DNA from: a virus | Lineage: Duplodnaviria; Heunggongvirae; Uroviricota; Caudoviricetes | Direction: 5' to 3' (one strand) | Length of the DNA: 26,649 bases | IMG/VR virus record: IMGVR_UViG_2778261572_000013 | Location: 1 to 26,649 of that record | Shown here: positions 3,044 through 23,794 of the stretch, piece after piece | Position numbering within the stretch: the first letter of the stretch is position 1 | Layout: every line of letters begins with the position of its first letter | The notes under the pieces: generated by a model | Told to the model about the DNA's origin: nothing | Database searches by the model: none | The model's input: only the letters and a program-made list of their open reading frames with translations | Program-made: the position numbers and the translations under genes

Positions 3044-3982
3044 TTATTGTATTGTTAAGATAATGCTGGCTATAATTTGAATATCCTCAATGGAACACTC
3101 AAAATCCTTACTCCCACCAGAAACAAGAATTTTGTTCTTAGGTAAACGAGTTAACTCTTTTAAAGATAACTCATTGTCAATTCCTACTAACCATTTTCCA
3201 TCTCTAATTAGGTGAAATTCTTTATCACATATGACATGTTTTTCTCCATTGCTTACAAACATCAAGCTGCTAGTTTCTTGCTTCGGAAGTAGACACCGAT
3301 CCATGGATAAAAAACCTGACTCGACAAGCACGCCATTGACCAAATTGAACTTATTTAAAATTACAGTGTTTTCTTCTTGTGAACTATTTGGTGTTTCGAT
3401 TCCTGTAACTAGCCAGGCGAGATCCGCTTTGGTTTCTAATGCGCATTTAATCACCCAATCCGCAGGGAAAGAATCTCGCATGTATCGTGTGGCTAATGTG
3501 CTTTTTGAAATACCAAGGTGGTCGGCTAAGGCTTGGCGGGTTTTAAACCCGTAAGCATTAACAATCCTCTCTATCGCGGCTTTTCCTCCGTTAGTAAGCT
3601 CAATGTGATTCTCAATGCGGCGCTTAAAGGATGATTGATGAGCGTTGCTGTTAAACCCCTCATGTGGGACTGTTTCATCATGTTGTTCCACATAAGGGGG
3701 GAAACTTTCTTCTGCATTGTTAGAACCAAAGGCCAGCCATTCTAGGGATGCGCCAGTTTCCATTGAACATATAACAACCCAATCAGCAGGGAAGGTATCG
3801 CGTGCATATCTATTAGCCATTGTGCTTTGTGAAATACCAAGATGCTTACAGAAGGCTTGGCGTGATTTGAAACCATAGGCCTTGAGTATCCTCTCAATGA
3901 CTTTTTGCCCTCCACGATTCTGCATGACCATAGCTTTCAGACTATCTTCAATATGGCGAAATGTGATTTTTTGAGTTGACAT
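3044..3982 (-). CDS. 186 CI-like immunity repressor with tandemly duplicated N-terminal DNA-binding domain
   Basis: 312 aa. Residues about 29-85 and 137-193 are paralogous (IERI.AYGFK.RQA..HLGIS.ST.A.RY.RD.FPADWV..C..ET.A.L.WL), resembling the phage CI repressor N-terminal domain. Divergent from the cox/cII operon, as expected for the repressor. Confidence 0.7.
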   Translation of the reverse strand: MSTQKITFRHIEDSLKAMVMQNRGGQKVIERILKAYGFKSRQAFCKHLGISQSTMANRYARDTFPADWVVICSMETGASLEWLAFGSNNAEESFPPYVEQHDETVPHEGFNSNAHQSSFKRRIENHIELTNGGKAAIERIVNAYGFKTRQALADHLGISKSTLATRYMRDSFPADWVIKCALETKADLAWLVTGIETPNSSQEENTVILNKFNLVNGVLVESGFLSMDRCLLPKQETSSLMFVSNGEKHVICDKEFHLIRDGKWLVGIDNELSLKELTRLPKNKILVSGGSKDFECSIEDIQIIASIILTIQ

Positions 3983-5894: not shown

Positions 5895-5961
5895 CCAACT
5901 AATGAAATTAATGGCGTAAACCCGCCGGGCATCCCTTTATCTAAATTCAGGAGAATTGATT

Positions 5962-7575: not shown

Positions 7576-9986
7576 GCCATGCTGATATGAACAACTGCAG
7601 CGGCTTTAACGAGGCCGCCGCAGCATTCTCATGGAACAGCCCGAAAAAGGCTATTAACCCTTATCTGGACCCGGCGGAAGTTGCGCCGGTTTCTGCGCTT
7701 TCAAACCTGATCACTCTGTACGCTGCCGATAACGAGCAGGAACAACTGCGCCGCGAGGCACTGAGTGATCAGGTTTGGGAGCGTTATTTCTTTAATGAAT
7801 CCCGTGATCCTGTCCAGCGCGAAATGGAGCAGGATAAGCTCATTAGCCGGGCAAAGTTGGCGCATGAGCAGCAGCGTTTTAACCCGGACATGGTCATTCT
7901 GGCAGACGTTAACGCCCAGCCTTCCCATATCAGCAGGCCGCTGATGCAACGTATTGAATACTTCAGCAGCCTTGGCAGGCCAAAGGCTTATTCCCGCTAT
8001 TTGCGTGAGACGATTAAGCCATGTCTGGAACGGCTGGAGCATGTACGCGACAGTCAGCTATCCACTTCTTTTCGCTTTATGGCAAGCCATGAAGGGCTGG
8101 ACGGCCTGCTGATTCTGCCTGAAATGAGTCAGGATCAGGTGAAACGCCTGTCCACCCTTGTTGCTGCGCATATGAGCATGTGCCTTGATGCAGCTTGTGG
8201 CGATTTGTATGCCACCGATGACGTTAAGCCAGAAGAAATCCGCAAGACATGGGAAAAGGTGGCAGCAGAAACCCTGCGACTGGATGTCATACCGCCTGCG
8301 TTTGAGCAACTCCGCCGGAAAAGAAACCGCCGTAAACCCGTGCCCTATGAACTCATTCCGGGTTCGCTGGCGCGTATGTTGTGCGCCGATTGGTGGTACC
8401 GGAAATTATGGAAGATGCGTTGCGAATGGCGGGAAGAGCAGTTGCGTGCTGTTTGCCTGGTCAGCAAAAAAGCATCTCCCTATGTCAGCTATGAAGCCGT
8501 GATGCATAAACGTGAGCAGCGCCGTAAGTCGCTGGAGTTTTTCCGTTCTCATGAACTGGTGAACGAAGACGGCGACACGCTGGACATGGAGGATGTGGTA
8601 AACGCCAGCAGCAGCAACCCTGCGCATCGCCGCAATGAGATGATGGCCTGTGTTAAAGGTCTGGAGCTTATCGCGGAAATGCGCGGTGACTGCGCCGTTT
8701 TCTACACCATCACCTGTCCGTCACGTTTCCATTCCACGCTAAATAACGGCAGGCTCAACCCGACCTGGACAAATACGACGGTAAGACAAAGCAGTGATTA
8801 TCTGGTCGGCATGTTTGCTGCATTTCGTAAGGCGATGCACAAAGCCGGATTGCGCTGGTATGGCGTGCGGGTGGCTGAGCCGCATCATGACGGTACAGTT
8901 CACTGGCACCTGTTGTGTTTTATGCGCAAAAAAGATCGCCGCACCATTACTGCTTTGTTGCGTAAGTTTGCCATTCGTGAAGACCGCGAGGAGCTGGGTA
9001 ATAACACGGGACCACGCTTTAAGTCTGAGCTGATAAACCCGCGCAAAGGTACGCCAACAAGCTACATCGCGAAATACATCAGTAAGAACATTGACGGGCG
9101 TGGTCTGGCTGGCGAGATCAGCAAGGAAACGGGTAAATCCCTGCGTGATAACGCTGAATACGTTAATGCCTGGGCGTCTCTGCATCGTGTTCAGCAATTC
9201 CGCTTCTTTGGAATTCCGGGGCGTCAGGCTTACCGTGAACTGCGATTGCTGGCTGGTCAGGCGGCAAGGCAACAGGGGGACAAAAAAGCAGGTGCGCCGG
9301 TACTGGATAACCCGCGCCTTGATGCAATCCTGGCTGCTGCTGATGCTGGTTGTTTTGCCACCTACATCATGAAGCAGGGCGGCGTACTGGTTCCCCGCAA
9401 ATATCACCTCATCAGAACTGCTTATGAAATCAACGAAGAACCGACCGCATATGGCGATCACGGTATTCGTATTTATGGCATCTGGTCACCCATTGCAGAG
9501 GGCAAGATCTGCACTCATGCGGTGAAGTGGAAAATGGTTCGTAAGGCCGTTGACGTTCAGGAGGCGGCAGCCGACCAGGGCGCTTGCGCCCCTTGGACTC
9601 GTGGCAATAACTGTCCCCTTGCTGAAAATTTGTACCAACAAGGGAAAGACAAATCAGCTGATGGAGATACCAGAACGGATATCACCCGCATGGATGACAA
9701 GGAGTTGCACGATTACCTGCACAGTATGAGCAAAAAAGAGCGCCGGGAACTGGCTGCAAGGTTACGCCTGGTGAAACCGAAACGGCGTAAAGACTACAAA
9801 CAGCGAATTACAGACCATCAGCGACAGCAGCTCGTCTATGAACTGGAGTCCAGAGGATTTAATGGCAGCGAGAAAGAGGTCGATTTACTCCTTCGCGGCG
9901 GCAGTATTCCGTCAGGAGCAGGTCTGCGTATCTTCTATCGGAACCAGCGTTTGCAGGAAGATGATAAGTGGCGAAACCTGTATTAA
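7572..9986 (+). CDS. A: Replication initiation endonuclease (P2 gpA-like rolling-circle initiator)
   Basis: 804-aa ORF at the P2 gene A position, start overlapping the dam stop. Contains an HxH-type motif (GTVHWHLL) and a Tyr-containing region ([10 protein letters not shown]) consistent with Rep-type nickases. Confidence 0.85.
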
Positions 9987-10078: not shown

Positions 10079-10098
10079 TACTGTAAATATAAACAGTG
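10079..10098. promoter_or_regulatory. LexA (SOS) box
   Basis: taCTGTaaatataaACAGtg matches the CTGT-N8-ACAG consensus, with promoter-like hexamers just upstream, about 45 bp before the 10140 ORF. Confidence 0.7.
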
Positions 10099-10139: not shown

Positions 10140-10328
10140 ATGCAGGACTATTTTTTGGAGTCTTTGAAGCTCCAGCGCATTGATTTTTTTCTTAAGCTTG
10201 TAGCGGCTAGTGAGTGTAGTGATGAAGAGAAGGGGCTGGCTTTGCAGTGGGTTTCTGAACTGACAGATGAACTCATGGCAAAAATCAGAAGCCACGAATA
10301 CAACCGCTCAATGGATGTCATCAGCTGA
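10140..10328 (+). CDS. Small SOS-controlled protein, possible Tum-like antirepressor N-terminal module
   Basis: 62-aa ORF with strong RBS (AGGAGG) directly downstream of the LexA box; position matches the LexA-controlled tum locus of phage 186 after gene A. Confidence 0.45.
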   Translation: MQDYFLESLKLQRIDFFLKLVAASECSDEEKGLALQWVSELTDELMAKIRSHEYNRSMDVIS

Positions 10329-10338
10329 GGGGACTTTT

Positions 10339-10572
10339 ATGCGCATTGAAATAATGATCGATAAAGAGCAGAAGATTAGCCAGTCTACCCTGGACGCCCT
10401 TGAATCCGAGCTTTACCGCAATCTGCGCCCCCTGTATCCCAAAACGGTAATTCGTATCCGTAAAGGTAGCTCTAACGGTGTGGAACTGACCGGACTGCAA
10501 CTGGACGAAGAAAGGAAGCAAGTGATGAAAATTATGCAGAAGGTGTGGGAAGACGACAGCTGGCTGCATTAA
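10339..10572 (+). CDS. DinI-family protein
   Basis: 77 aa starting MRIEIMIDKEQ, ending WEDDSWLH; resembles DinI (MRIEVTIAK ... WESADDWF). RBS GAGGGGA. Confidence 0.75.
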   Translation: MRIEIMIDKEQKISQSTLDALESELYRNLRPLYPKTVIRIRKGSSNGVELTGLQLDEERKQVMKIMQKVWEDDSWLH

Positions 10573-10842
10573 GAAACGTTGCTGGCGTCTGAACTTGCTT
10601 CTGGCGTCAGCAAGGTTGAACAACGAGCTGTGCGAGGCGTTAGTGTCAATTTGTTACCTTAACCACGATATATGCTAGGAAATTAACAGTTCTTAAGAAA
10701 CCGCTTGCATGATCGAGCGCATTGAACTTAAGTTTAAGTAACGAAATCAACAGATGATATTGTTGTCTAAATTTTAAAGATAATCTGTTGAGGTTGTAGG
10801 CGTCGGAGTGTAGACTTCCGCGCCATGTAAAAAGGGGGAGTT

Positions 10843-11058
10843 ATGTCAAGCATCGCCGCATTTAGCCTGGGTAACCCAGTTGAACGTCTGGCAAGGGTTC
10901 TTAAAGAGAACCAGGACAAACTCAATCTTAGTAAAGATGGTTTTGTGTCCGTAGACTTGTCTAACAAAAGAGCAATGGATGCCATCAAGGCACAGATGGA
11001 TAAGCTTGAAGGCATCAAAACGAGCACTGTAAAAGAGAAAACTAATAGAACCAGATAA
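10843..11058 (+). CDS. Hypothetical small soluble protein (cassette 1, gene 1)
   Basis: 71 aa with strong RBS (AAGGGGGAG). AT-rich. Stop overlaps the next start (TAATG). Confidence 0.55.
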   Translation: MSSIAAFSLGNPVERLARVLKENQDKLNLSKDGFVSVDLSNKRAMDAIKAQMDKLEGIKTSTVKEKTNRTR

Positions 11059-11900
11059 TGGCAACATTACTTTTAGCAGTGATTTTGGTTAGTGGTTTTA
11101 TTTATGTAAACCTATCACTTTCAACAAGATACCGATATAAGCGTTCCAACGGCTGGGACGCTTATTTTTTTGTGGCTGCCTGGGGTATCGTTTTTTTTCT
11201 CCTTGGCGGTTTTTTCACCTTTATTTTGAACGTCAGCGGAGGGTTTCGTTGGCTGGCTAATGCCTTGAATCTAACACCTGACAGTTTTAATGGCATGTTG
11301 TCTTCATCGAAAGACAAACTTCAAAGAATAAATGAAATCAAACAGATAGCATGGGTTATGATTTCAATTGTCCTCGCTGCGATTTCAGGTTTTGGAAATA
11401 AGTTACGCACATCACGTGGAGATCGTCGCTGGGATGCCTTAGCTAAAGCTGTGGGTAATAACGCTTTCGAATCATTACTCATGGAAGCGTCCGCAAGACA
11501 GTTTCCGATCATAGCAACTCTGTCGTCTCGCAAAATCTATGTTGGTCTTGTTACTTGTCCGGCGTTAGAAAACGGGCTTTCAGAGCACCTTGAACTTCTC
11601 CCGATGTTAAGCGGATATCGGGATAAAGATGATCTAACGATTAGTATCACGACTAACTATCACCAACATTATCTTGATAGTGGTGTGATAAGTGGAATGT
11701 CTCGGCTTAATATCGAAGATTTCCGTGTGCTCATACCAAAAGATGAGGTTGAAACAATTTCGTTTTTTGATACTGAGACATATAACAAATTTAAAGAAAA
11801 TGAAGCCAGGGATAGAAAGAGCTGTCGAAAGATTGGTAGTAAAAGTGCATCTTCGCACAGCAAGCGTGCAGCAGATACTGAGTCAAATGATCGTGCATGA
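11058..11900 (+). CDS. Hypothetical membrane protein (cassette 1, gene 2)
   Basis: 280 aa; three hydrophobic segments in the first about 115 residues, then a hydrophilic domain of about 165 aa. Translationally coupled to the 71-aa gene. Confidence 0.55.
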   Translation: MATLLLAVILVSGFIYVNLSLSTRYRYKRSNGWDAYFFVAAWGIVFFLLGGFFTFILNVSGGFRWLANALNLTPDSFNGMLSSSKDKLQRINEIKQIAWVMISIVLAAISGFGNKLRTSRGDRRWDALAKAVGNNAFESLLMEASARQFPIIATLSSRKIYVGLVTCPALENGLSEHLELLPMLSGYRDKDDLTISITTNYHQHYLDSGVISGMSRLNIEDFRVLIPKDEVETISFFDTETYNKFKENEARDRKSCRKIGSKSASSHSKRAADTESNDRA

Positions 11901-11948
11901 CTATGCTGCATGAGATCGCATGATCGTTTGAGGATCGTTTTTGCTAAG

Positions 11949-11972
11949 GCCCGCCAGAACTGGCGGGCTTTT
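11949..11972 (+). terminator. Rho-independent terminator after cassette 1
   Basis: GCCCGCCAG-aa-CTGGCGGGC perfect 9-bp stem followed by TTTT. Confidence 0.7.
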
Positions 11973-12231
11973 GCATAGATCATGCACCTGCATGAAAACT
12001 ACTACATAAAGCGGGCAGGCGTGGCGGGGATACGAGCGCGCGCTGTCGGTATTTTCAAAATTTAAGTAAGATAGTAAATGCAAAATGTGTATCACTCTAT
12101 CGGGTACAGAAAAACCATTCAGAAACTATAATTGAACAGTAACAAACGTGATGATGTTCACTTTTTTAAATTTTTTATATAAACTGATGGGTACTATGAC
12201 AGTAATATGCCAGCTTGCGTGAGAATGAATT

Positions 12232-12696
12232 GTGGAAAAAGAGCTAAATCAAAATCAGATCAGTGAAGTGCAGATTAATGTCTGCCACAAAATCTATGAA
12301 TTTTTTAAGTCTTTAGATGGAGCATCCGATTTCAAAATCGAAACTGAAACCAGTGGCGATGATGGCGATCTAAGTTTTTCTTTTGAGCAATCAAAGACTA
12401 TTTTTAAAGTGGAAGTGCTTTCTACAGAATACTTTAAATTAATTAGAATTATAAATGCATTTGACTTTACCGCAACAAAGTCTATTGAGGAAATGAATTT
12501 ATTAGGCAGGGCAAATCAATTTAATGCATATGCAGTGGGCATTAAGGCTCTGGTTCATACTAAAAAAGTAGGTTATGTTGATTTCTGCGTAGATATATTA
12601 TCTTCTAAAGGTGACGTTAATTCTAGCGATCTTAATTTATCCTTGGTCTTACTAAGAAGTGCGCCAATGAATTTTCTGGCAGTAACTAAGGACTAG
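12232..12696 (+). CDS. Hypothetical acidic soluble protein (cassette 2, gene 1)
   Basis: 154-aa ORF from a GTG start, AT-rich, no recognised motif; followed 10 bp later by the next gene. Confidence 0.45.
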   Translation: MEKELNQNQISEVQINVCHKIYEFFKSLDGASDFKIETETSGDDGDLSFSFEQSKTIFKVEVLSTEYFKLIRIINAFDFTATKSIEEMNLLGRANQFNAYAVGIKALVHTKKVGYVDFCVDILSSKGDVNSSDLNLSLVLLRSAPMNFLAVTKD

Positions 12697-12706
12697 TGAG
12701 GACAAT

Positions 12707-13480
12707 ATGCCAACAAAGCCTAGTTTAGATGAAAATTCAACGTTAAACTTGAAGGCGCAATCTTATTTAAAAGCTGTCTCGGTAGATGCCTCAAATGATT
12801 CTACCCACAATGGATGGAATGCTGATGTAATTATTTTTTTTGTTTTCATTGTTGTTGTAATGGCTCTGACACTATCAAAATGGCTTCAGAATAAAATAGA
12901 TGAATTTATTTCAAAAAAATATTTTAGATGGGTTTTTTCTGGGGTAATTCTTCCAGCGATATCGTTAGGCTTAGCAAGCTACACAACAGCATCAAATCAA
13001 AAATTTGTATACATTGCTACAATTATAGTAAGTCTTGTGATTGGTGAGCGAGCTTCTGCACTGACAGCTGAGAAATCCGAACAACAACTTGAGGCTGAGA
13101 CAGGAAAATTAACTAGCAAAATAAGTGTGCTAGAAGCTGCACATACTAAGGCTTTGGAAAAGAAAGATGCTGAACTTGCAGCTAAAGGTAATGAAATTAG
13201 AGCTGTATCTGATGAGCTTACTAAAAGAGTTGATGAGTTACGTCAGAATTATTTGCGAAGATTGTACGAAATAGCTACAGATCATCAAGAGGCTGATTGT
13301 GTTGTCATTAAATTGAGAGTAAAAGAGGTGGCTCAAGATATTATGGCAACAAGTGGGCTTCTTTTAACTATGGATAGTATTGATTATCAGGTGAGAAATA
13401 ACCAAGTTCCGTTGCCACAGGAAAGTTCAATTGTTTATGAATATGCTATGAAGAATGCTAAAGCTCGAAATCAGCAATGA
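12707..13480 (+). CDS. Hypothetical membrane protein with coiled-coil domain (cassette 2, gene 2)
   Basis: 257 aa with RBS GTGAGGA; three hydrophobic segments (about residues 41-113), then a heptad-like charged region (EKSEQQLEAETGKLTSKISVLEAAHTKALEKKDAELAAKGNEIRAVSDELTKRVDELRQ). Confidence 0.55.
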   Translation: MPTKPSLDENSTLNLKAQSYLKAVSVDASNDSTHNGWNADVIIFFVFIVVVMALTLSKWLQNKIDEFISKKYFRWVFSGVILPAISLGLASYTTASNQKFVYIATIIVSLVIGERASALTAEKSEQQLEAETGKLTSKISVLEAAHTKALEKKDAELAAKGNEIRAVSDELTKRVDELRQNYLRRLYEIATDHQEADCVVIKLRVKEVAQDIMATSGLLLTMDSIDYQVRNNQVPLPQESSIVYEYAMKNAKARNQQ

Positions 13481-13484
13481 TTTT

Positions 13485-13516
13485 AAAGCCAAGTCAGTGT
13501 TAACTGACTTGGCTTT
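13485..13516. terminator. Bidirectional hairpin terminator between cassette 2 and portal gene
   Basis: Perfect 14-bp inverted repeat AAAGCCAAGTCAGT-gtta-ACTGACTTGGCTTT flanked by T/A runs, between convergent genes. Confidence 0.7.
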
Positions 13517-13518: not shown

Positions 13519-14547
13519 TTACAGTTTATATTCAGAGAAATTTATAATGCGCTCACCCAACCAATAATTAATCTCTGCAATCCGCATTTGCAGGGCTACT
13601 AGCTCATTTCGCACAAAAACATTTGCCGCCTTCTCTACATCCCCAAACCCTCCAACATTATTAGGCATTATCCCCATCATTTGCGGCGGTACGCGGTGCG
13701 CCGCCATCATGTCGTCCCGGCTCACGTTCTTGATATTCAGAAACTCATCCTTCGCCGCGACTTCTGACAGAGGAATGATCTGAAGCCCATCCTTTTTGCC
13801 GTTAGGCGAGTACATAAACAGGTTGCGGAAGTTACCCGGTCCTTTGGCGCTTTTCATTGCGTTGCGGAGGTTGTTCACATCCTCCTGGTTTTGCGCGGCA
13901 TCGGTCATGTACATGATGAAGCCTGCATGACTGCCGTTAATGTAATACTTCCGGCGGAACAGCGTGGCGGACTCGTTGAGCAGAGCGGATGGAATAGCAG
14001 AAAGATAGCCAGGCAGGCCGTAGATCTCCTGATTAATATCCGGTTCCATCAGATGAAAGATGCTGCCTTTCGTGAACTGATACGGCTGGGTTGCCATACC
14101 GTATTGCACAAACCAGTAGGTATCCAGGTCTAATCCGCGTCGAGTGTATTTTGCCAGGGCAGGTTCAAGGGCGATAACTTCACCGAAGCGGTTCGTGCGT
14201 TTCTCCAGGTAGGCATTACCAAATACCAGATAGTCCTGCACAAAACGTGAAAAAGCCTGCTGGCTGAGCAACGGGTGAGGGATATAGGTGCTGGTCAGAA
14301 TGTTGCACTTTACTGCAATCGGTGAGCTGTGGTGTACGGCGGCGCGGAAGGTTCGCGCCAGGCCGTCGAAACTCACTGGTGGCTCATACCAACGGTCCAT
14401 CTGTACGCATTCCACATAGTCCAGCAGTTCGCGGCGGTCCAGAACAGGAACGGGATCACCGAAGCTGAATGCTTCGGCTGAAGTCTGGTTTTTATGCTGG
14501 ATCTGTTTCGTCGCCGCAGCGCGGTTCTTCTTACTCTTTCCCATCAA
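13519..14547 (-). CDS. Q: Portal vertex protein (P2 gpQ-like)
   Basis: 342 aa (P2 Q is about 344 aa), leftward, adjacent to the terminase remnant, in the P2 cos-Q-P arrangement. Confidence 0.8.
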   Translation of the reverse strand: MMGKSKKNRAAATKQIQHKNQTSAEAFSFGDPVPVLDRRELLDYVECVQMDRWYEPPVSFDGLARTFRAAVHHSSPIAVKCNILTSTYIPHPLLSQQAFSRFVQDYLVFGNAYLEKRTNRFGEVIALEPALAKYTRRGLDLDTYWFVQYGMATQPYQFTKGSIFHLMEPDINQEIYGLPGYLSAIPSALLNESATLFRRKYYINGSHAGFIMYMTDAAQNQEDVNNLRNAMKSAKGPGNFRNLFMYSPNGKKDGLQIIPLSEVAAKDEFLNIKNVSRDDMMAAHRVPPQMMGIMPNNVGGFGDVEKAANVFVRNELVALQMRIAEINYWLGERIINFSEYKL

Positions 14548-15236
14548 AAAATCTCCACAATATTGCTGGTATTGGCGGACTCGCCCTGCAGTGGTTCGTT
14601 AAACAGTGCGTGCATTGTTGCCCAGGCCAGATCGGCATGGCTGGCTTCTTCGCTGCGGCTGGCTTCATAGGTCGGGCGGTTGCCGCTGGCGGTGGTGGCG
14701 CGACGGATTGCCATGAATGACTGCGCAATGTCGGTGTGCCCGGCGTCAAACTCAAGACGGCGGTGGCTGATAATGTCGTAGGCCTTGAGTACCAGGGCGT
14801 TTTTAACGTTGGGGTTGTAGACAAACTCCCGGACGGCAGGAAAAAACGCTTTCACGTTCTCGTAAACCCCGTGACCAACGCCGGTTGAGTCGATGCCGAT
14901 ATAGGTCACGTTGTACTGTTCGGTCAGTTTTTTGATGGCGTCAGCTTGGGCGCGAAAGTCCATTCCGCGCCACTGGTGACGCTCAAGAATGCGGAACTTA
15001 CCGCCTGGCACGGCTGGCGGTGCCACCACCACGCATCCGGCGCTGTCGCCGTTCTGCGTACCTTTTGCCGGGTCATAACCGATCCACACTTCGCGCCAGC
15101 CAAACGGGCGCAGGGCCAGTGCATGAAAGTCGGTCCAGACTTCCCAGCTGTCGGTACAAATACCGCGCATTGTTTCACTGCCCCCATCACCGCAACCATA
15201 AGGCTCCAGTAAGTTTTTTCTAACGGAGCACGGCTC
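14544..15236 (-). pseudogene. P: Terminase large subunit (gpP) 3' fragment; N-terminal ATPase domain missing
   Basis: Open frame ends where the O gene starts. The segment from about WIGYDPAKG...DSAGCVVVAPP onward resembles a terminase nuclease domain. No Walker A region is present, and the frame's first 47 codons are antisense to the O start. Confidence 0.6.
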
Positions 15237-16070
15237 ATGACAGTGAAAGCAAAGCGTTTTCGCATCGGGGTGGAAGGTGCCACCACCGACGGACGCGAAA
15301 TCCAGCGTGAATGGCTGGAACAGATGGCAGCCAGCTACAACCCGGCGGTGTATACCGCGCTGATTAACCTTGAGCACATCAAGTCTTATCTGCCGGACAG
15401 CACCTTTAACCGCTACGGCAAGGTGACGGCGCTGTTTGCTGAAGAAATCACGGAGGGTCCGCTGGCGGGCAAGATGGCACTGTATGCCGACGTTGAGCCA
15501 ACGGAGTCCCTGGTGGAACTGGTGAAAAAAGGCCAGAAATTATTCACCTCTATGGAAGTCAGCCCGAAGTTTGCTGATACGGGCAAAGCCTACCTGGTCG
15601 GCCTGGCAGCCACTGATGACCCAGCCAGTCTGGGTACGGAAATGCTGACATTCAGCGCCAGCGCAGCCCATAACCCGCTGGCAAACCGCAAGCAGAATCC
15701 CGCCAATCTCTTTACCGCCGCAGAGGAAACGGTGATCGAACTGGAAGAAATCCAGGATGACAAACCGTCCCTGTTTGCCCGTGTCACGGCGCTGTTTACA
15801 AAAAAAGAGCAGTCCGACGATGCCCGGTTTTCTGATGTGCATAAGGCCGTGGAACTGGTCGCCACTGAGCAGCAAAACCTGAGTGTGCGCACCGAAAAAT
15901 CCCTTTCTGAGCAGGAAGAACGTCTGTCTGAGCTGGAGACAGTTCTGCAGGCACAACAGGCCGCCTTTAACGAACTGGTGGACAAGCTGAGCCATGAAGA
16001 CAGCCGCCAGGACTACCGCCAGCGTGCAACGGGCGGTAACGCCCCCGCTGACACTCTGACCAATTGCTGA
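15237..16070 (+). CDS. O: Capsid scaffolding protein (P2 gpO-like)
   Basis: 277 aa (P2 O is about 284 aa), first gene of the rightward head operon, GGAG RBS. Confidence 0.8.
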   Translation: MTVKAKRFRIGVEGATTDGREIQREWLEQMAASYNPAVYTALINLEHIKSYLPDSTFNRYGKVTALFAEEITEGPLAGKMALYADVEPTESLVELVKKGQKLFTSMEVSPKFADTGKAYLVGLAATDDPASLGTEMLTFSASAAHNPLANRKQNPANLFTAAEETVIELEEIQDDKPSLFARVTALFTKKEQSDDARFSDVHKAVELVATEQQNLSVRTEKSLSEQEERLSELETVLQAQQAAFNELVDKLSHEDSRQDYRQRATGGNAPADTLTNC

Positions 16071-16086: not shown

Positions 16087-17145
16087 ATGAAGAAGAATAC
16101 CCGCTTTGCTTTTAACGCTTACCTGCAGCAGCTGGCGCGTCTGAACGGTGTGGCAGTTGAAGAACTGTCCAGCAAGTTCACCGTGGAGCCGTCTGTACAG
16201 CAGACGCTGGAAGACCAGATCCAGCAGTCCGCCGCTTTCCTGACGCTGATTAACGTCACGCCAGTGACTGAGCAGTCCGGTCAGCTGCTGGGGCTGGGTG
16301 TTGGCAGCACCATTGCCGGAACCACTGACACCACCGCGAAAGAGCGTGAACCTGTCGATCCGACGCTGATGGTCGATGTGGAATACAAATGCGAACAGAC
16401 CAACTTTGACACAGTGCTGACCTACGCGAAGCTGGACCTGTGGGCGAAGTTTCAGGATTTCCAGGTGCGTATCCGTAACGCCATTGTGAAACGTCAGGCA
16501 CTGGACCGCATCATGATCGGCTTTAACGGCGTGAAGCGTGCGAAAACCTCCAACCGCAGCGAAAACCCGCTGCTGCAGGATGTGAACAAAGGCTGGTTGC
16601 AGAAAATCCGTGAGGATGCACCGGATCACGTCATGGGCACCACCACCACGGGCGGTGAAACCACACCGGGTGCGGTGAAAGTCGGGAAAGGTGGCGAATA
16701 TGCCAACCTGGACGCCGTAGTGATGGATGCCGTCAATGAGCTTATCGACGTGGTCTACCAGGACGATGATGATCTGGTGGTGATTTGCGGTCGTGAACTG
16801 CTGTCTGACAAGTACTTCCCGCTGGTCAATAAAGAGCAGGAAAACAGTGAAAAACTGGCTGCCGATATGATCATCAGTCAGAAACGCATGGGTGGCCTGC
16901 AGGCCGTGCGTGCGCCGTTCTTCCCGCCGAATGCGCTGCTGATCACCCGTCTGGATAACCTGTCCATCTACTGGCAGGAAGATACCCGCCGCCGTTCAGT
17001 TATCGACAACCCGAAACGTGACCGGATTGAAAATTTTGAATCCGTTAACGAAGCCTATGTGGTTGAGGACTATCGCTGCGCTGCACTGGTGGAAAACATC
17101 CAGATTGGTGACTTCAGCGCCGCCGCAGCAGAAACCGGAGCGTAA
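16087..17145 (+). CDS. N: Major capsid protein (P2 gpN-like)
   Basis: 352 aa, follows O; size and order as P2 N. Confidence 0.8.
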   Translation: MKKNTRFAFNAYLQQLARLNGVAVEELSSKFTVEPSVQQTLEDQIQQSAAFLTLINVTPVTEQSGQLLGLGVGSTIAGTTDTTAKEREPVDPTLMVDVEYKCEQTNFDTVLTYAKLDLWAKFQDFQVRIRNAIVKRQALDRIMIGFNGVKRAKTSNRSENPLLQDVNKGWLQKIREDAPDHVMGTTTTGGETTPGAVKVGKGGEYANLDAVVMDAVNELIDVVYQDDDDLVVICGRELLSDKYFPLVNKEQENSEKLAADMIISQKRMGGLQAVRAPFFPPNALLITRLDNLSIYWQEDTRRRSVIDNPKRDRIENFESVNEAYVVEDYRCAALVENIQIGDFSAAAAETGA

Positions 17146-17148
17146 TTC

Positions 17149-17799
17149 ATGAGCCTGAGTCCCGCACGGCAGCATCGCCTGCGCGTTCAGGCTGAACAGG
17201 CCGCTCGCGAGGGTGGCAGTGTTCGCCACGCGTCGGGCTATGACCTGATGCTGCTGCAACTGGCGGAAGACCGCCGCCGTCTCAAGGGCGTTCAGTCCAC
17301 GGTCAAAAAAGCGGAAATCAAGGTGGAGCTGCTGCCGAAATATGCCGCCTGGGCGGAGGGCGTTCTGGCTGCCGGAGGCGCTCAACAGGATGACGTGCTG
17401 ATGTACGTGATGCTGTGGCGCATTGATGCCGGAGATTATGCCGGGGCGCTGGAGATCGGGCGTCATGCCCTGCGTCATGGCTGGGTGATACCGCTGGGTA
17501 ACCGCAACGTGCAGACCGTGCTGGCAGAGGAAATGGCAGACGCGGCGCAGAGCGCAATGCTTGCCGCCACCGGCTTTGATGCCGATCTGTTGCTGCAGAC
17601 GCTGGAGCTGACAGACGGTCTGGATATGCCGGACCAGTCACGGGCGCGTCTGCATAAAGCGATTGGCGCTGTCCTGAGTGAAAGCAATCCGGCGTCTGCC
17701 CTTAATCATCTCAACCATGCGTTACAGCTCGATCCCCGCTGTGGCGTGAAAAAAGACAAACAGCAGCTGGAGCGCAGACTGCGCAATGACAGCCGCTGA
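17149..17799 (+). CDS. M: Terminase endonuclease/small subunit (P2 gpM-like)
   Basis: 216 aa, follows N; order as in P2. Confidence 0.7.
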   Translation: MSLSPARQHRLRVQAEQAAREGGSVRHASGYDLMLLQLAEDRRRLKGVQSTVKKAEIKVELLPKYAAWAEGVLAAGGAQQDDVLMYVMLWRIDAGDYAGALEIGRHALRHGWVIPLGNRNVQTVLAEEMADAAQSAMLAATGFDADLLLQTLELTDGLDMPDQSRARLHKAIGAVLSESNPASALNHLNHALQLDPRCGVKKDKQQLERRLRNDSR

Positions 17800-17894
17800 C
17801 AGAACGTGCCCCCGCGCACGGGCGGCACGGGGTGGCGAAAGGCATAGCCACATCAAAATCCCGTTCACCGCCCTCTATTTCAGGAGAAAGCAGC

Positions 17895-18125
17895 ATGAAG
17901 TTTGTTGCGCCAGAACAGGCACCGGAACAGGCGGAAATCATCAGAAATACGCCGTTCTGGCCTGATGTGGACCTGTCGGAGTTTCGCAGCGTGATGCGCA
18001 CTGACGGCACGGTGACGCAGCCGCGTTTAAAGCAGGTTGCCCTGTCTGGACCGACGGCATTGGTAATACGTCGGGCGTCATTCCCGGCAAAACCATTACG
18101 GAGCGACAGGCAGCAGAAGGGCTGA
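17895..18125 (+). CDS. L: Head completion protein gpL-like, probably 3'-truncated
   Basis: ATG 17895 with AGGAGAAAG RBS; only 76 codons (P2 L is about 169 aa); frame is lost where lysozyme-like sequence begins in another frame. Confidence 0.4.
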   Translation: MKFVAPEQAPEQAEIIRNTPFWPDVDLSEFRSVMRTDGTVTQPRLKQVALSGPTALVIRRASFPAKPLRSDRQQKG

Positions 18126-18397
18126 TCTCCAACGTGCTGCGTGTGGAGCGGGCGCTGGAAAGGTGTGTGAAGCAACAGCCGCCGCAGAAGGTGTATGACG
18201 CTGCGGTGTCGTTTGCCTTCAACGTGGGTACGGGCAATGCCTGCAGTTCCACGCTGGTGAAATTGCTCAATCAGCGGCGCTGGGCGGATGCGTGCCGACA
18301 GTTGCCGCGCTGGGTGTATGTAAAAGGTGTGTTTAATCAGGGGCTGGATAACCGCCGTGCACGGGAGATGGCCTGGTGCTTACAGGGAGCAAACTGA
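18005..18397 (+). pseudogene. K: Phage lysozyme (gpK-like, GH24 family) lacking the N-terminal catalytic region
   Basis: Frame-2 open stretch encodes CPVWTDGIGNTSG...GKTITERQAAEGL...SFAFNVGTGN...RRW..., matching the middle and C-terminus of lambda/P21-type lysozymes; no in-frame N-terminus with the catalytic Glu upstream. Confidence 0.55.
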
Positions 18398-18398
18398 A

Positions 18399-18836
18399 AT
18401 GAAAAAGAAAGTAATCAGCGGACTGTTTCTGATGTTATGGATGGCGCTGTTAATCGCAGCAATGGTGTATCCGCAGGGGATTTTTCCGGTACTGGCAGCG
18501 TCCGGTGTCTGGGTAGCCTGTCTGCTGACATGGGGGGCAATTCCGGTAGCACTGGTTGCGTTAATTAAGAACGGCCCGCTCTGGCAGGAGTTGAGGGCAT
18601 CTTTGCTGAAGAGCATTACCCGAAAAGAAAACGTATTTATCAGCTGGATGATGCGATTGCTGATTGTCGTAAGTCTCGCCTGGACGGGGTGGGCTATTAC
18701 CCTGGTCTTTTATCTGCTGACCGTTATCGCCACCATTTTTCACTGGCCGCCATCCGTTACTGACGTTATGCCGCTGACCGAAGTGCTGGAATGGCGGTAT
18801 AAAGCGATTCAGAGAAGCGGGGACAACGATGAGTGA
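18399..18836 (+). CDS. Small membrane protein, LysA-like candidate
   Basis: 145 aa with four hydrophobic segments, RBS AGGGAG, immediately after the lysozyme remnant as P2 lysA follows K. Its stop overlaps the T start. Confidence 0.4.
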   Translation: MKKKVISGLFLMLWMALLIAAMVYPQGIFPVLAASGVWVACLLTWGAIPVALVALIKNGPLWQELRASLLKSITRKENVFISWMMRLLIVVSLAWTGWAITLVFYLLTVIATIFHWPPSVTDVMPLTEVLEWRYKAIQRSGDNDE

Positions 18837-21800
18837 TAACAACCTGCGGCTGCAGGTCATTCTTAATGCGGTTGACAAACTCACCCGCCCATTCCGTGCT
18901 GCACAGGCCAGTTCGAAAGAGCTGGCTGGCGCAATCAGAAACTCCCGTGACGCATTAAAGCAACTCAATCAGGCGGGTAACAGCCTGGAAAAATTTCGCA
19001 AGCTGCAGGCCGATAACAAGAAGTTAGGCGACAGGCTGAACTATGCCAGACAGAAGGCTAATTTACTTAGCTCTGAGCTGGAGTCGATGGAACAACCATC
19101 ACAACGGCACCTTGTGGCTTTAGGTCGGCAAACGCTGGCAGTCCAACGCCTGGAAGAACAACAAAAATATTTGCAGAAGCAAACGGCGCTTGTGCGTGCA
19201 GAACTGTACCGGGCGGGAATTTCTGCGAAAGATGATGCGGGAGCAACTGCCCGTTTAGCCCGTGAAACATCACGTTATAACCAGGAATTGTCGCAACAGG
19301 AGGCGAGGCTGAAGCGACTGGGGGAAGCTCAGCGCAGGATGAATGCAGCGCGTGCCAGTTATGCCCGTTCGCTGGAGGTGCGTGATCGTATTGCAGGTGT
19401 TGGAGCCACCACCACGGCTGCAGGGCTGGCAATGGGCGCACCAGTGATGGCGGCAGTAAAAAGCTATACCAGCATGGAAGATGCTATGAAAGGTGTGGCA
19501 AAGCAGGTCAATGGTCTGCGTGACGATAATGGCAACCGCACTGCACGTTTTTATGAAATGCAGGATGCCATCAAGGCTGCCAGCGAACAGTTGCCGATGG
19601 AAAACGGTGCGGTGGACTTCGCTGCACTGGTTGAAGGTGGTGCGCGCATGAACGTCGCAAACCCTGACGACAGCTGGGAAGACCAGAAACGTGATCTGCT
19701 GGCCTTCGCCAGCACGGCAGCAAAGGCGGCAACAGCCTTTGAGCTGCCAGCGGATGAACTGTCAGAAAGTCTGGGTAAAATCGCCCAGCTCTACAAAATC
19801 CCTACCCGCAATATTGAACAGCTCGGTGATGCGCTGAACTATCTGGATGATAACGCCATGTCGAAAGGGGCAGACATCATTGATGTCATGCAACGCCTGG
19901 GCGGTGTGGCTGATCGTCTGGATTATCGTAAAGCGGCGGCGCTGGGTTCCACCTTCCTGACACTGGGTGCTGCGCCGGAGGTTGCAGCCAGTGCAGCAAA
20001 CGCGATGGTGCGTGAATTGTCCATTGCCACCATGCAAAGCAAGAGTTTCTTTGAAGGAATGAATCTGCTGAAACTCAATCCTGAAGTGATTGAAAAGCAG
20101 ATGACGAAGGATGCGATGGGAACCATCCAGCGCGTGCTGGAGAAGGTGAACGCACTGCCACAGGACAAGCGTCTGTCTGCCATGACCATGTTGTTTGGTA
20201 AAGAGTTTGGTGATGACGCGGCGAAACTGGCAAACAACCTTCCGGAACTGCAGCGCCAGCTAAAACTGACAGCGGGCAATGATGCGCTCGGTTCCATGCA
20301 GAAAGAATCCGACATCAACAAAGACTCACTTTCTGCTCAGTGGTTGCTGGTCAAAACCGGAGCGCAGAACACCTTCAGCAGCCTGGGCGAAACGCTGCGC
20401 CAGCCGCTGATGGATATTCTGTACACGGTGAAAAGCATCACGGGGGCGTTGCGCCGCTGGGTGGAAGCTAACCCGGAACTGACAGGCACACTGGTGAAAG
20501 TAGCGGCTGTTGTGGCTGCGGTTACCGTTGGCCTCGGCACCTTAGCGGTGGCGCTGGCTGCAGTGCTGGGGCCGCTGGCAGTGATTCGTCTGGGATTCTC
20601 TGTGCTGGGTATCAAAACGTTACCTTCCGTTACGGCAGCAGTAACCCGAACCAGCAGCGCGTTGTCCTGGCTGGCTGGCGCACCACTGGCACTGCTGCGA
20701 CGCGGGCTTGCTTCATCGGGCAACGCCGCAGGTTTACTTACTGCGCCGTTGTCGTCTTTGCGCCGCACGGCATTACTGACGGGAAATGTCCTGAAAACTG
20801 TAGCAGGTGCGCCGGTTGCACTTTTGCGGTCTGGATTATCCGGTTTACGTGCTGTTGCTGTGATGTTTATGAATCCTCTGGCGGTACTGCGCGGTGGACT
20901 GGCCGCCGCAGGCACGGTGCTGCGAGTACTGGCATCTGGTCCACTGGCGATGCTGCGCGTTGCCCTGTATGCCGTATCTGGTCTGTTAGGTGCTCTGCTC
21001 AGTCCGATAGGTCTTGTGGTTACTGCACTGGCGGGCGTGGCGCTGGTTGTCTGGAAATACTGGCAACCCATCACCGCATTTCTTGGTGGCGTGGTGGAAG
21101 GATTCAAAGCGGCGGCAGGTCCCGTCAGTGAAGCATTCGAACCGCTTAAGCCCGTGTTCCAGTGGATTGGCGACAAAGTACAGGCGCTGTGGGGCTGGTT
21201 TACTGATCTGCTGACGCCCGTTAAGTCGACCTCTGCCGAACTGCAGAGTGCAGCGGCAATGGGGCGACGATTCGGGGAGGCACTGGCGGAAGGGCTAAAT
21301 ATGGTCATGCATCCGCTGGACTCCCTGAAATCCGGCGTTTCCTGGTTGCTGGAGAAGCTCGGCATTGTCAGTAAAGAGGCCGCAAAGGCAAAACTGCCGG
21401 AAAGCGTGACGCGTCAGCAACCTGCGACGGTGAATGCAGACGGTAAAGTGATGATGCCATCGGGTGGTTTTCCATCATGGGGATATGGCTTTGCGGGGAT
21501 GTATGACAGCGGCGGGTATATCCCGCGCGGGCAGTTTGGCATCGTCGGTGAAAACGGGCCGGAAATTGTTAACGGCCCGGCAAATGTGACCAGCCGGAGA
21601 AATACAGCTGCACTGGCTGCCGTTGTTACCGGAATGATGGGCGTTGCTGCCGCGCCTGCAGAGCTTCCACCGTTGCACCCTTTGGCACTTCCCGCGAAAG
21701 GTGGAGAAGCAATTGTGAGTCGCGCAGCCACTGTGCCGCCCGTTTACAGGATTGAGGCACCGACGCAGATCATCATCCAGACGCAGCCAGGACAAAGTGC

Positions 21801-21906
21801 GCAGGATATTGCGCGGGAGGTGGCCCGCCAGCTTGATGAACGTGAACGCAGGCTGAAGGCAAAGGCCAGGAGTAACTACAGCGATCAGGGGGGATACGAC
21901 GCATGA
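18829..21906 (+). CDS. T: Tail tape measure protein (P2 gpT-like)
   Basis: 1025 aa; N-terminal coiled-coil region, central Gly/Ala-rich hydrophobic repeats (xPLAxLRxGL units); followed by U and D as in P2. Confidence 0.8.
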   Translation: MSDNNLRLQVILNAVDKLTRPFRAAQASSKELAGAIRNSRDALKQLNQAGNSLEKFRKLQADNKKLGDRLNYARQKANLLSSELESMEQPSQRHLVALGRQTLAVQRLEEQQKYLQKQTALVRAELYRAGISAKDDAGATARLARETSRYNQELSQQEARLKRLGEAQRRMNAARASYARSLEVRDRIAGVGATTTAAGLAMGAPVMAAVKSYTSMEDAMKGVAKQVNGLRDDNGNRTARFYEMQDAIKAASEQLPMENGAVDFAALVEGGARMNVANPDDSWEDQKRDLLAFASTAAKAATAFELPADELSESLGKIAQLYKIPTRNIEQLGDALNYLDDNAMSKGADIIDVMQRLGGVADRLDYRKAAALGSTFLTLGAAPEVAASAANAMVRELSIATMQSKSFFEGMNLLKLNPEVIEKQMTKDAMGTIQRVLEKVNALPQDKRLSAMTMLFGKEFGDDAAKLANNLPELQRQLKLTAGNDALGSMQKESDINKDSLSAQWLLVKTGAQNTFSSLGETLRQPLMDILYTVKSITGALRRWVEANPELTGTLVKVAAVVAAVTVGLGTLAVALAAVLGPLAVIRLGFSVLGIKTLPSVTAAVTRTSSALSWLAGAPLALLRRGLASSGNAAGLLTAPLSSLRRTALLTGNVLKTVAGAPVALLRSGLSGLRAVAVMFMNPLAVLRGGLAAAGTVLRVLASGPLAMLRVALYAVSGLLGALLSPIGLVVTALAGVALVVWKYWQPITAFLGGVVEGFKAAAGPVSEAFEPLKPVFQWIGDKVQALWGWFTDLLTPVKSTSAELQSAAAMGRRFGEALAEGLNMVMHPLDSLKSGVSWLLEKLGIVSKEAAKAKLPESVTRQQPATVNADGKVMMPSGGFPSWGYGFAGMYDSGGYIPRGQFGIVGENGPEIVNGPANVTSRRNTAALAAVVTGMMGVAAAPAELPPLHPLALPAKGGEAIVSRAATVPPVYRIEAPTQIIIQTQPGQSAQDIAREVARQLDERERRLKAKARSNYSDQGGYDA

Positions 21907-22388
21907 TGATGGTGCTGGGATTGTACGTGTTTATGCTGCGCACCGTGCCGTATCAGGAACTGCAGTATCAGCGCAGCTGGCGACATGCGGCTAACAGCCG
22001 GGTAAATCGTCGTCCGTCCACGCAGTTTCTGGGACCGGACAACGACATGCTGACGCTTTCCGGTGTTCTTATGCCGGAGATAACAGGCGGCAGGCTGTCG
22101 TTGCTGGCACTGGAGCAGATGGCAGAACAGGGGAAAGCATGGCCTCTGATTGAAGGCAGCGGCACGATTTACGGCATGTATGTGATTGAGGGACTGAATC
22201 AGACTAAAACGGAGTTTTTCCGCGACGGTATGCCGCGCCGGATTGAGTTCACCCTGTCGCTCAAACGGGTGGATGAATCCCTGTCCGATATGTTCGGTGA
22301 TCTCAGTGCGCAGCTGAATAATCTGCAGGGAGCGGCAACATCAGCCTTAAGCGATATCAGTAAAACGGTGGGAGGGCTTCTGTCGTGA
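21903..22388 (+). CDS. U: Tail protein gpU-like
   Basis: 161 aa (P2 U is about 159 aa), overlaps the T stop, precedes D. Confidence 0.75.
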   Translation: MMMVLGLYVFMLRTVPYQELQYQRSWRHAANSRVNRRPSTQFLGPDNDMLTLSGVLMPEITGGRLSLLALEQMAEQGKAWPLIEGSGTIYGMYVIEGLNQTKTEFFRDGMPRRIEFTLSLKRVDESLSDMFGDLSAQLNNLQGAATSALSDISKTVGGLLS

Positions 22389-23485
22389 ATTTCAGCTCTG
22401 AACTGCTTAACAAAGGCAACAAAACTCCGGCATTCAGCATCAGTATTGAAGGCAGGGATATCACCACTGTGCCGGACAACCGCCTGATGGGGCTGACGCT
22501 GACGGATAACCGGGGATTTGAAGCGGACCAGCTTGATCTGGAGCTGGACGACGCCGATGGAAAAATCGTGCTGCCGCGCCGTGGTGCGGTCATTACGCTG
22601 GCGCTGGGCTGGAAGGGGCAGCCGCTTTTCCCGAAAGGGGCATTCACGGTGGACGAGATTGAACACACTGGCGCACCGGACCGCCTGACTATCCGGGCGC
22701 GAAGTGCTGATTTTCGGGAAACCCTGAATACCCGCCGTGAAAAATCTTGGCACAAGACCACCGTCGGGGAAGTGGTAAAGGAAATAGCCGCGCGTCACAA
22801 GCTGAAGATGGCGCTGGGTAAAGACCTGTCGGATAAGCCCGTGGAACATATAGACCAGACTAATGAGAGTGACGGCAGTTTTCTGATGCGGCTGGCGCGA
22901 CAGTACGGTGCCATCGCGTCGGTGAAAAATGGCAATCTGCTATTCATCCGGCAGGGGCAGGGCAAAAGCGCCACTGGTAAACCACTGCCAGTGATCACTA
23001 TCACACGCAAGGACGGCGACAGTCACCGCTTTACCCTGGCAGATCGCGGAGCCTACACGGGCGTAATTGCCAGCTGGTTGCATACCCGCGAACCTGCGAA
23101 GAAAGAAAGCACCACGGTGAAGCGTAAGCGCAGAACTAAGAAGCAGAAGAAAGAGCCAGAAGCGAAGCAGGGCGATTACCTGGTGGGTACGGATGAAAAC
23201 GTGCTGGTACTTAATCGCACTTATGCCAACCGGAGCAACGCCGAACGAGCGGCGAAAATGCAGTGGGAACGCCTGCAACGCGGCGTTGCGTCATTCTCGC
23301 TACAACTGGCAGAAGGGCGGGCAGATCTCTACACGGAAATGCCAGTGAAAGTCAGTGGCTTTAAACAGCCGATAGATGATGCGGAATGGACCATTACGAC
23401 TCTGACGCATACCGTCAGCCCGGATAACGGTTTTACGACCAGTCTGGAGCTTGAAGTGAGGATTGATGATTTCGAAATGGAATGA
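22385..23485 (+). CDS. D: Tail protein / late control gene D-like
   Basis: 366 aa (P2 D is about 387 aa), position between U and ogr. Confidence 0.75.
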   Translation: MNFSSELLNKGNKTPAFSISIEGRDITTVPDNRLMGLTLTDNRGFEADQLDLELDDADGKIVLPRRGAVITLALGWKGQPLFPKGAFTVDEIEHTGAPDRLTIRARSADFRETLNTRREKSWHKTTVGEVVKEIAARHKLKMALGKDLSDKPVEHIDQTNESDGSFLMRLARQYGAIASVKNGNLLFIRQGQGKSATGKPLPVITITRKDGDSHRFTLADRGAYTGVIASWLHTREPAKKESTTVKRKRRTKKQKKEPEAKQGDYLVGTDENVLVLNRTYANRSNAERAAKMQWERLQRGVASFSLQLAEGRADLYTEMPVKVSGFKQPIDDAEWTITTLTHTVSPDNGFTTSLELEVRIDDFEME

Positions 23486-23575: not shown

Positions 23576-23794
23576 ATGATGATTTGCCCACTGTGTGGAA
23601 GTGCCGCCCATACTCGCAGCAGTTTTCAGGTATCTTCATTGACCAAAGAGCGTTACAACCAGTGCCAGAACATTAACTGCAGCCATACTTTTGTTACCCA
23701 TGAAACTTTTGTTCGTTCGATTGCAACGCCAAAAGAGTCAAATCCGGTTCAGCCGCATCCAATGAAATCAGGACAGGTGGCGCTCTCTCTTTGA
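23576..23794 (+). CDS. ogr: Ogr-type zinc-finger late-gene transcription activator
   Basis: MMICPLCGSAAHTRSS...KERYNQCQNINCSHTF... closely parallels P2 Ogr (MFHCPLCQHAAH...KERYHQCQNVNCSATF); last prophage gene before attR, as in P2. Confidence 0.9.
   Translation: MMICPLCGSAAHTRSSFQVSSLTKERYNQCQNINCSHTFVTHETFVRSIATPKESNPVQPHPMKSGQVALSL

Follow-up and report, generated by a model that had tools for sequence, protein, structure and literature searches.

A recurrent, nucleotide-precise breakpoint in the endolysin gene at a deletion joint of a decaying P2/186-like prophage of Escherichia coli

Why does the endolysin gene of a prophage begin in its own interior, directly behind the first third of a head gene, and why at that very nucleotide? 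The question is raised by a stretch of 26,649 nucleotides (nt) that makes up positions 1 to 26,649 of the IMG/VR virus record IMGVR_UViG_2778261572_000013 (hereafter "the window", at its full length), which is an Escherichia coli chromosomal segment with a 186/P2-like prophage integrated beside ybjL-ybjM-grxA. An earlier sequence-only reading had described, at 17895–18397, a deletion junction fusing a truncated gene L (head completion) to a lysozyme gene that lacks its catalytic N-terminus. We find that the feature is an ordinary deletion, of a known kind, in a decaying P2/186-like prophage, and that its end in the endolysin gene K is a recurrent, nucleotide-precise hotspot of deletion ends and not a random position. 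Taken as a whole, the observations are very probably best explained by three short-homology deletions (joints J1, J2 and J3), of which J2 shares its K-side end with many others, and by a process of breaking and rejoining that would have produced it.

The joint between L and K, J2, is located by blastn against the intact prophages in loci L001 and L003, which splits the window at 18043–18046, inside the range of 18000–18060 that had been forecast for a pairwise alignment. Window 17000–18046 corresponds to L001 4001–5047 and window 18043–18731 to L001 5921–6609, the two pieces being 877 bp further apart in intact relatives than in the window. Both parents carry the tetranucleotide TGTC at this point (...GCCCTGTC^GGCA in L and ...GGGTGTC^TGGA in K; carets mark joint or cut positions), and the ends of the deletion can be written as ...GCCCT^GTCG in L and ...GCGGGT^GTCT in K. 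J2 removes L codons 52–154, all of gene X, all of the holin gene Y and K codons 1–53, and tblastn with the missing parts finds no other copy in the window, in line with the earlier claim that these parts are absent. Because 877 is not divisible by three, the stumps of L and K are out of frame: the L-like open reading frame (ORF) does end after 76 codons (ATG at 17895, stop at 18123–18125) and the deletion does join the two genes, but it yields no fusion protein. The L stump covers positions 1–36 of the 139 of the Pfam profile Phage_GPL (PF05926), its GPL domain thus being incomplete. The K stump comprises K residues 54/55–170 and matches positions 18–125 of the 125-position Pfam profile Phage_lysozyme, against 2–125 in intact K. 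Its frame is open from 18005 to the K stop and holds the lysozyme motifs reported there, although true K sequence starts only at 18043/18047; the first ATG, GTG or TTG is a GTG at 18134.

What the K stump has lost can be judged from intact relatives. Intact K has 170 residues and aligns end to end with Lyz of phage P1 (PDB 1XJT/1XJU, E = 2e-26), and in this alignment it has a hydrophobic N-terminal signal-anchor-release (SAR) segment (residues 1–23) with C9, and further on E41, C43, C50 and T56; by its sequence, intact K is a GH24 SAR endolysin of the P1 Lyz type. From what is known of P1 Lyz, we take E41, C50 and T56 to be the catalytic residues (E-8-C-5-T) and C43 to be regulatory. The SAR segment with its cysteine, present in intact K, is deleted in the window, and only T56 survives of the triad E41-x8-C50-x5-T56. 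The statement that the lysozyme has no catalytic N-terminus therefore holds for E41 and C50, whereas the third catalytic residue, which lies in the motif VWTDGIG, is kept. That lysis functions are inactivated was borne out: besides the SAR domain, E41 and C50, the holin Y is lost, and the spanin genes lysB and lysC have gone through a separate deletion.

The K-side end of J2 lies between K codons 53 and 54, at GCGGGT^GTCT^GGACC (T5921^G5922 in L001 coordinates), and this point forms one end of at least 22 distinct deletions in independent P2-like prophages and assemblies, which run in both directions and agree within 1–2 nt. Five are leftward types (from L, from M twice, from P and from Q to K) and 17 are rightward (from K to lysB, V, J, H, T, U and D). 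The leftward ones were sought by looking up the 87-residue ORF that any 5′-truncated K leaves behind, which returned ten different contexts consisting of nonsense and frameshift alleles of K and of larger deletions with the same right end (L008, L009); a pattern scan and a homology search added two more types (Table 1). In all five types K begins at the same 2–4 nt. Since sampling by the 87-residue ORF detects leftward deletions only, a separate search was made with K residues 1–53, and it returned 16 different proteins in which K residues 1–53, sometimes 54, are followed by an unrelated tail. Eleven of the 14 tails of searchable length map to downstream phage genes on the same strand: three junction proteins fall at two sites in V, three nearby sites lie at the end of J, two tails belong to the invertase/sheath region, and the others go to the lysB region, U and D. 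Among the same results, only about 3–5 deletion-type joints fall elsewhere in K codons 1–90, the remaining truncated proteins being frameshifts, and other deletions (P0019, P0024, P0032, P0046) span the hotspot. Short K-left patterns of 15–16 specified bases matched 51 loci in IMG/VR, only one of which (L026) is a real joint; nearly all of the rest are either fortuitous matches to unrelated viruses or K alleles that are intact (V54I, V54A, V54K), and short-pattern matches are accordingly unreliable as evidence of a joint. We found no report of a hotspot at K codon 53/54 in the literature, which is weak evidence of novelty.

Point mutation, too, has knocked out the endolysin repeatedly and independently: L011, L013, L014, L017 and L020 carry Y40stop, Q75stop, R74stop or single-base frameshifts in K and look intact otherwise over 2–8 kb of sequence. 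A heavily decayed prophage at the same ybjL site (L025, GCA_946062075.1, 2428–7720) has four deletions, A–P, L–Y, K–J and H–D, among which only the K-side end falls on the hotspot.

The joints are precise enough for their anatomy to be compared base by base. Where the left part of K is retained, it ends at T5921, with the base of the partner next, or at G5922; where the right part is retained, it begins by T5923 at the latest in two types and is ambiguous within 5921–5925 in the others. Every partner has T at −1 (10 of 10 distinct rightward sites mapped from tails, and 5 of 5 leftward), and position 0 holds G or A. It is the right-hand parent that supplies the four bases following the T, and in three cases the G of K is kept and then followed by partner sequence. 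One partner site in the V gene gives both outcomes, GGT^ACC (P0073) and GGT G^CC (P0063), a pair that a short heteroduplex at the joint would produce exactly. As both polarities halt at one phosphodiester, the pattern argues for a DNA break rather than for a protein roadblock, and as nearly all products (about 20 of 22) are of the top-strand type, it favours a coding-strand nick over a symmetric staggered exchange. We infer that the hotspot suffers a sequence-specific break, most simply a nick of the top (coding) strand.

Which enzyme might make such a break? Our leading but tentative candidate, possible rather than probable in our estimate, is DNA gyrase or topoisomerase IV: the hotspot would be a nucleotide-precise, enzyme-made break site, likeliest a top-strand nick at GCGGGT^G stabilised by quinolones, which repeatedly triggers deletion of lysis and morphogenesis genes. 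Supplementary table S2 of Sutormin et al. lists, as 133-bp fragments centred on the cut, the gyrase consensus and the strong gyrase site of phage Mu, and the accompanying text states that quinolones promote gyrase scission before G (PMC6379681). In GenBank AF083977 the "gyrase cut site" is annotated at 17879..17880, at the T^G step of Mu, the wild type being GCGGCT^GATT. When aligned by their centres, the fragments of that table read TCGGCGGTAT^GGGG^ATACC for the consensus and CTGTGCGGGT^GATT^TTATG for Mu, and K reads CAGCGCGGGT^GTCT^GGACC. The left half of K, CAGCGCGGGT, matches CTGTGCGG(C/G)T of Mu at 7–8 of 10 positions in the same register, both having G at 0 and T at +3. In K the T^G step is found on the top strand only, the bottom strand offering C^A, so that, given the quinolone preference for scission before G, a drug-stabilised complex would tend to nick the top strand, which fits the bias of the joints.

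Nothing was seen that speaks against the deletion itself. Several observations weigh against the gyrase proposal or against any special mechanism. By a crude count of matches to the tabulated consensus fragment, which is no weight matrix, the K core is only among the top 3.6–5% of positions and the full 133 bp are unremarkable. The symmetric, 4-bp-staggered exchange expected of the enzyme predicts equal numbers of top- and bottom-strand products, against the ~20 of 22 of the top-strand type; a processed staggered double-strand break should lose 5923–5925, which right-retained K includes. The right arm is an essential part of the Mu gyrase site (PMC10052514), and K is unlike it there. As to the hotspot itself, the sample was seeded with K fragments in a huge collection, so that the absolute frequency is low, and of 976 complete E. 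coli genomes that contain this K region, only about 10 have no contiguous match across the hotspot. Gyrase at the hotspot is possibly the right guess, a lead and not a demonstration.

Nearly as good as an even chance, in our judgement, is that the hotspot is real and its cause is something other than a topoisomerase, such as another strand-specific nickase (an HUH Rep protein or relaxase, or a homing or defence nuclease) or a pausing polymerase that switches template. A single-strand event would fit both the strong top-strand bias and the lone invariant base, T at −1, and the gyrase consensus score is unremarkable; a protein roadblock, however, would not stop both polarities at one phosphodiester, and no specific alternative enzyme can be named. 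The candidates that were tried fit poorly. A pseudo-origin for the replication nickase gpA was rejected, since the hotspot is unlike both the P2 nick site (GCGCCTCG^GAGTCC, GenBank 29892) and its homologue in the window prophage (~9589–9600); a gpA look-alike, TGTCTGGAACGG, in gene A (8021–8033) varies synonymously between phages and so is not a conserved element. Crossover sites of Cin-like phage invertases (TTCTC...ACCTTGGTTT...GAGAA) are unrelated to the K site, and no unusual hairpin or cruciform is predicted there, the fold energies being no different from those of shuffled sequences (z −0.25 to −1.1). No insertion sequence or transposase remnant is left at any joint, nor was a true inversion seen: the lone apparent one (L079) sits in the invertible tail-fibre segment. 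Chi, Dcm/Vsr, the nic sites of the F and R388 relaxases and a Cas9-like cut 3 nt before TGG were considered and set aside, since they misfit in register or biology. It is improbable, on the other hand, that there is no fragile site at all and that the L–K joint arose once, then spread and diverged, the shared K end elsewhere being due to nested secondary deletions. The identical joint and 76-residue ORF of L004, L007 and the window agree with such a history, as does the resemblance of L007 to a recombinant with the left flank of L004 and the right flank of the window type, and an early-M–K deletion nested in L–K would use 4 nt of homology (CCTG) instead of 2. Yet each nested deletion would have had to end at exactly the nucleotide of the old joint, the 17 rightward deletions retain Y, X and L together with K codons 1–53 and thus cannot derive from an L–K ancestor, and the Q–K joint stands in a phage only 81% identical. 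Moreover, at the few loci examined, the distribution of the carriers of different joint types suggests that they are scattered among intact phages. The flanks of L004 and L007 diverge from those of the window within 5–14 bp of the joint, at sites of standing polymorphism among intact phages, and those of the three L–K carriers match different standing intact-phage haplotypes to within 5 bp of it. The identical joint in three haplotypes about 3% apart may thus reflect conversion of the flanks around one old joint, or a joint that formed more than once.

Two further readings concern J2 alone, and both are hard to credit. One would have the joint an artefact of assembly or library in a strain that truly has an intact lysis cassette: our evidence consists of assembled sequence and not of reads, and the related locus L012 has a scaffolding gap with duplicated ends at exactly the same place. 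It is extremely improbable all the same, for the exact 76-residue ORF occurs on four contigs assembled independently by different pipelines with long flanks on both sides (Table 1), the parents share only 4 nt, too few for a de Bruijn mis-join, and tblastn shows no second copy of the deleted genes in the window. The carriers are few and much alike; the joint is absent from complete E. coli genomes (0 of 5426), and neither its exact 34-mer nor a looser joint pattern gave a match in GTDB, at one genome per species. The other reading supposes a domesticated gene in which a programmed −1 frameshift at the heptamer T TTA AAG (18026) yields an L–K fusion with some activity. The heptamer does stand in the correct frame, with the K frame open from 18005 to the K stop, but it is plain L coding sequence that is present in intact phages too, and decay goes on around the joint in other carriers; a stimulatory structure was not seen either, though no search aimed at one was made. 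An intact lysozyme made by frameshifting, which the sequence-only reading had named as evidence that would overturn its view, is not encoded here, as the −1 product from 18026 would still be without E41, C50 and the SAR domain. We regard such a gene as most unlikely; the heptamer is probably incidental and without function.

Returning to a hotspot that breaks and rejoins, the route we propose would begin with a sequence-specific break at the T^G step of K, most simply a top-strand nick, for which gyrase or topoisomerase IV, especially when poisoned by quinolones (scission before G), would be the candidate enzyme. The broken end would then be rejoined elsewhere in the prophage through 1–4 nt of terminal homology. 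Where this strips holin, endolysin or morphogenesis genes, the cell would survive an otherwise lethal induction, and selection would enrich such survivors, which may be why these are the products seen. The only perfect CTGT-N8-ACAG (LexA-box-like) in the window lies at 10081–10096, upstream of a 62-residue ORF (10140–10328) and a DinI-like ORF (10339–10572), a layout that presumably corresponds to the place that the tum antirepressor operon occupies in phage 186; from this site and layout the prophage is probably SOS-inducible. If the proposed route is true, the stress that induces these SOS-inducible prophages would also "ground" them, a built-in route from active prophage to harmless remnant. 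Taken alone, J2 only adds another decayed prophage whose lysis cassette is dead, and it is the recurrent breakpoint that would matter. If decay is channelled through a fragile site in a lysis gene, early prophage decay would be partly deterministic and predictable from sequence, and should a drug-poisoned topoisomerase make the break, exposure to antibiotics would have a direct influence on which prophages get disarmed. The hotspot would also serve as a natural single-nucleotide reporter of illegitimate recombination in wild E. coli.

The state of the rest of the prophage is consistent with decay. By megablast, window 17000–19500 matches about 1100 P2-like prophages in the 5426 complete E. coli genomes, in which the order is terminase endonuclease subunit M, head completion L, tail X, HP1-family holin, lysozyme, LysA-like (DNZ54_00345), LysB and LysC. 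The left end of the window holds a phage integrase, an Old-type nuclease and a CI repressor, and its right end holds the host genes ybjL-ybjM-grxA at 99.9% identity to E. coli. Strain 2-1 (NZ_CP097198, L003) has an intact 34-kb prophage at the same site, and alignment of the whole window to it gives the three deletions J1, J2 and J3, a set found only in GCA_002229415.1 and SRR3989759. All three joints fit short-homology illegitimate recombination (TGTC at J1 and J2, TAT(C/T)GCC at J3). J3 has taken the 3′ end of lysA, lysB, lysC, R, S, V, W, J, I, H, G, the invertase gene, FI, FII and E, and has left a lysA–E chimera that is recorded in RefSeq as WP_274537030.1, "DNZ54_00345 family protein", and lies a short way upstream of the tape-measure gene. 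Intact-looking ORFs remain for O, N, M, T, U, D, ogr, Q and the early region, though no complete functional module is retained: the sheath, tube, baseplate and fibre genes are deleted, and the head module is without L and the terminase ATPase domain. Its lysis cassette being dead and lysB/lysC, the terminase ATPase domain and tail genes lost, the element can neither lyse the cell nor package DNA, build tails or make particles; it is a decaying cryptic prophage of the Peduoviridae. The term "domesticated", which had been applied to it, finds no support, the additional loss of the terminase ATPase domain and of nearly all tail genes resembling decay.

Table 1. Coordinates of features in the window, together with the joint types that share the K-side end and the carriers of the L–K joint (cells are empty where no value applies)
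Feature	Position in window	Strand	Description
P remnant	14544–15152	−	large terminase, C-terminal nuclease domain only (Terminase_6C)
Joint J1	15149–15152	+	TGTC; 1216 bp lost: terminase P codons 1–386 and 58 bp of P/O intergenic DNA
O (scaffold)	15237–16070	+	intact-looking, upstream of J2
N (capsid)	16087–17145	+	intact-looking, upstream of J2
M (small terminase)	17149–17799	+	intact-looking, upstream of J2
L pseudogene ORF, 76 codons	17895–18125	+	gpL residues 1–51 (17895–18046/47), then 25 out-of-frame K residues
Heptamer T TTA AAG	18026–18032	+	in the frame of the L stump; −1 slip would reach the K frame; native L sequence
Joint J2	18043–18046	+	TGTC microhomology; 877 bp lost (L001 5048–5924); K-side end is the hotspot T^GTCT^GG
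K remnant	18047–18397	+	endolysin residues 55–170; without SAR domain, C9, E41, C43, C50
lysA–E chimeric ORF, 145 residues	18399–18836	+	lysA residues 1–111 and reading frame of the GpE remnant; Pfam Phage_P2_GpE at residues 110–142
Joint J3	18712–18731	+	imperfect short homology, TATCGCC core (TAT(C/T)GCC); 10,800 bp lost
T	18829–21906	+	remaining late gene
U	21903–22388	+	remaining late gene
D	22385–23485	+	remaining late gene
ogr	23576–23794	+	remaining late gene; followed by host ybjL-ybjM-grxA
Leftward joint L–K			window, L004, L007
Leftward joint early M–K			L008
Leftward joint P–K			L009
Leftward joint late M–K			L018; pattern scan
Leftward joint Q (portal)–K			L019; homology search; phage only 81% identical in K
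Rightward DNA-level joint K–D			L021
Rightward DNA-level joint K–J			L022–24, L025
Rightward DNA-level joint K–T			L026; IMG/VR pattern search
Rightward DNA-level joint K–tail fibre			L078, L079
Carrier of L–K joint: GCA_002229415.1 NLMV01000024.1			100% identical to window over 18.7 kb
Carrier of L–K joint: SRR3989759 (Logan assembly)			100% identical to window
Carrier of L–K joint: ERR1195698 (L004, Logan assembly)			~97% identical to window; different further deletions
Carrier of L–K joint: SRR30297647 (L007, Logan assembly)			~97% identical to window; different further deletions

Several other observations were made in the same prophage and its relatives. J1 has taken the ATPase two-thirds of the large terminase P and part of the P/O promoter region. 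L004 has a different deletion near J1, with its P side 33 nt further on, and E. coli EC71 (L002) has an independent deletion from lysB/C to the E remnant that ends 43 nt away from J3. The 12-mer GTCTGGACCGAC (codons V-W-T-D) stands in terminase P (15129–15140, minus strand) and, in the opposite orientation, in K (18044–18055, plus strand); in P it is 9 nt away from J1, and in K it begins at the hotspot, which may be a coincidence or may be tied to the mechanism of the break. A full-length Old-type ATPase/Toprim nuclease (1231–3000, minus strand; PADLOC Old, E = 1e-234) is encoded between the integrase and the CI repressor, a location that differs from that in P2. The CI repressor (3044–3982, minus strand) has 312 residues with two Phage_CI_repr helix-turn-helix stretches, and a direct repeat of 143 bp within its gene (3432–3574 and 3756–3898, 72% identity) shows the repressor to be tandemly duplicated. 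Between the DinI-like gene and the portal/cos end lies a variable cargo region (10582–13500) with ORFs of 71, 280, 154 and 257 residues, none of which had a match in PADLOC, and only the 257-residue one had a match, a weak one to TetR_C_4, in Pfam. GmrSD (L004) or DndB (L009) stands at the same position in relatives, and the region may therefore be a hotspot for defence genes.

How do these features compare with known systems? Defective prophages of the P2/186 type are known in E. coli, the P2-related remnant of E. coli B being an example. The window shares with them the gene order int, CI, early genes, A, Q, P, O, N, M, L, X, Y, K, lysABC, tail genes, T, U, D and ogr, and it is likewise chromosomal and has lost essential genes through internal deletions at short homologies; it differs in that its set of three deletions is found in two assemblies only, with the L–K joint in none of the 5426 complete genomes. 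P1 Lyz is the prototype SAR endolysin and shares with intact K the EGCR..PY.C.AGVWTDGIGNT block, the SAR segment and the cysteine within that segment, whereas the stump in the window keeps residues 54/55–170 only and has no start codon ahead of the fragment. Nick sites at rolling-circle origins (M13, pC194) cause illegitimate recombination, and like the K hotspot they give joints with one end fixed to the nucleotide, varied partners and a strand bias; the K site is nonetheless unlike the gpA nick site of P2 or the homologue in the window. Gyrase-mediated illegitimate recombination in E. coli, which Ikeda and colleagues reportedly described, is said to give deletions in which one end sits at a favoured cleavage site and homology is slight or absent, and the K joints are alike in this respect. 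With the strong gyrase site of Mu, finally, K shares the T^G step, the G at 0, the T at +3 and 7–8 of 10 positions of the left half, and it departs from that site in its right arm, in a consensus score that does not stand out and in products that are almost all of the top-strand type.

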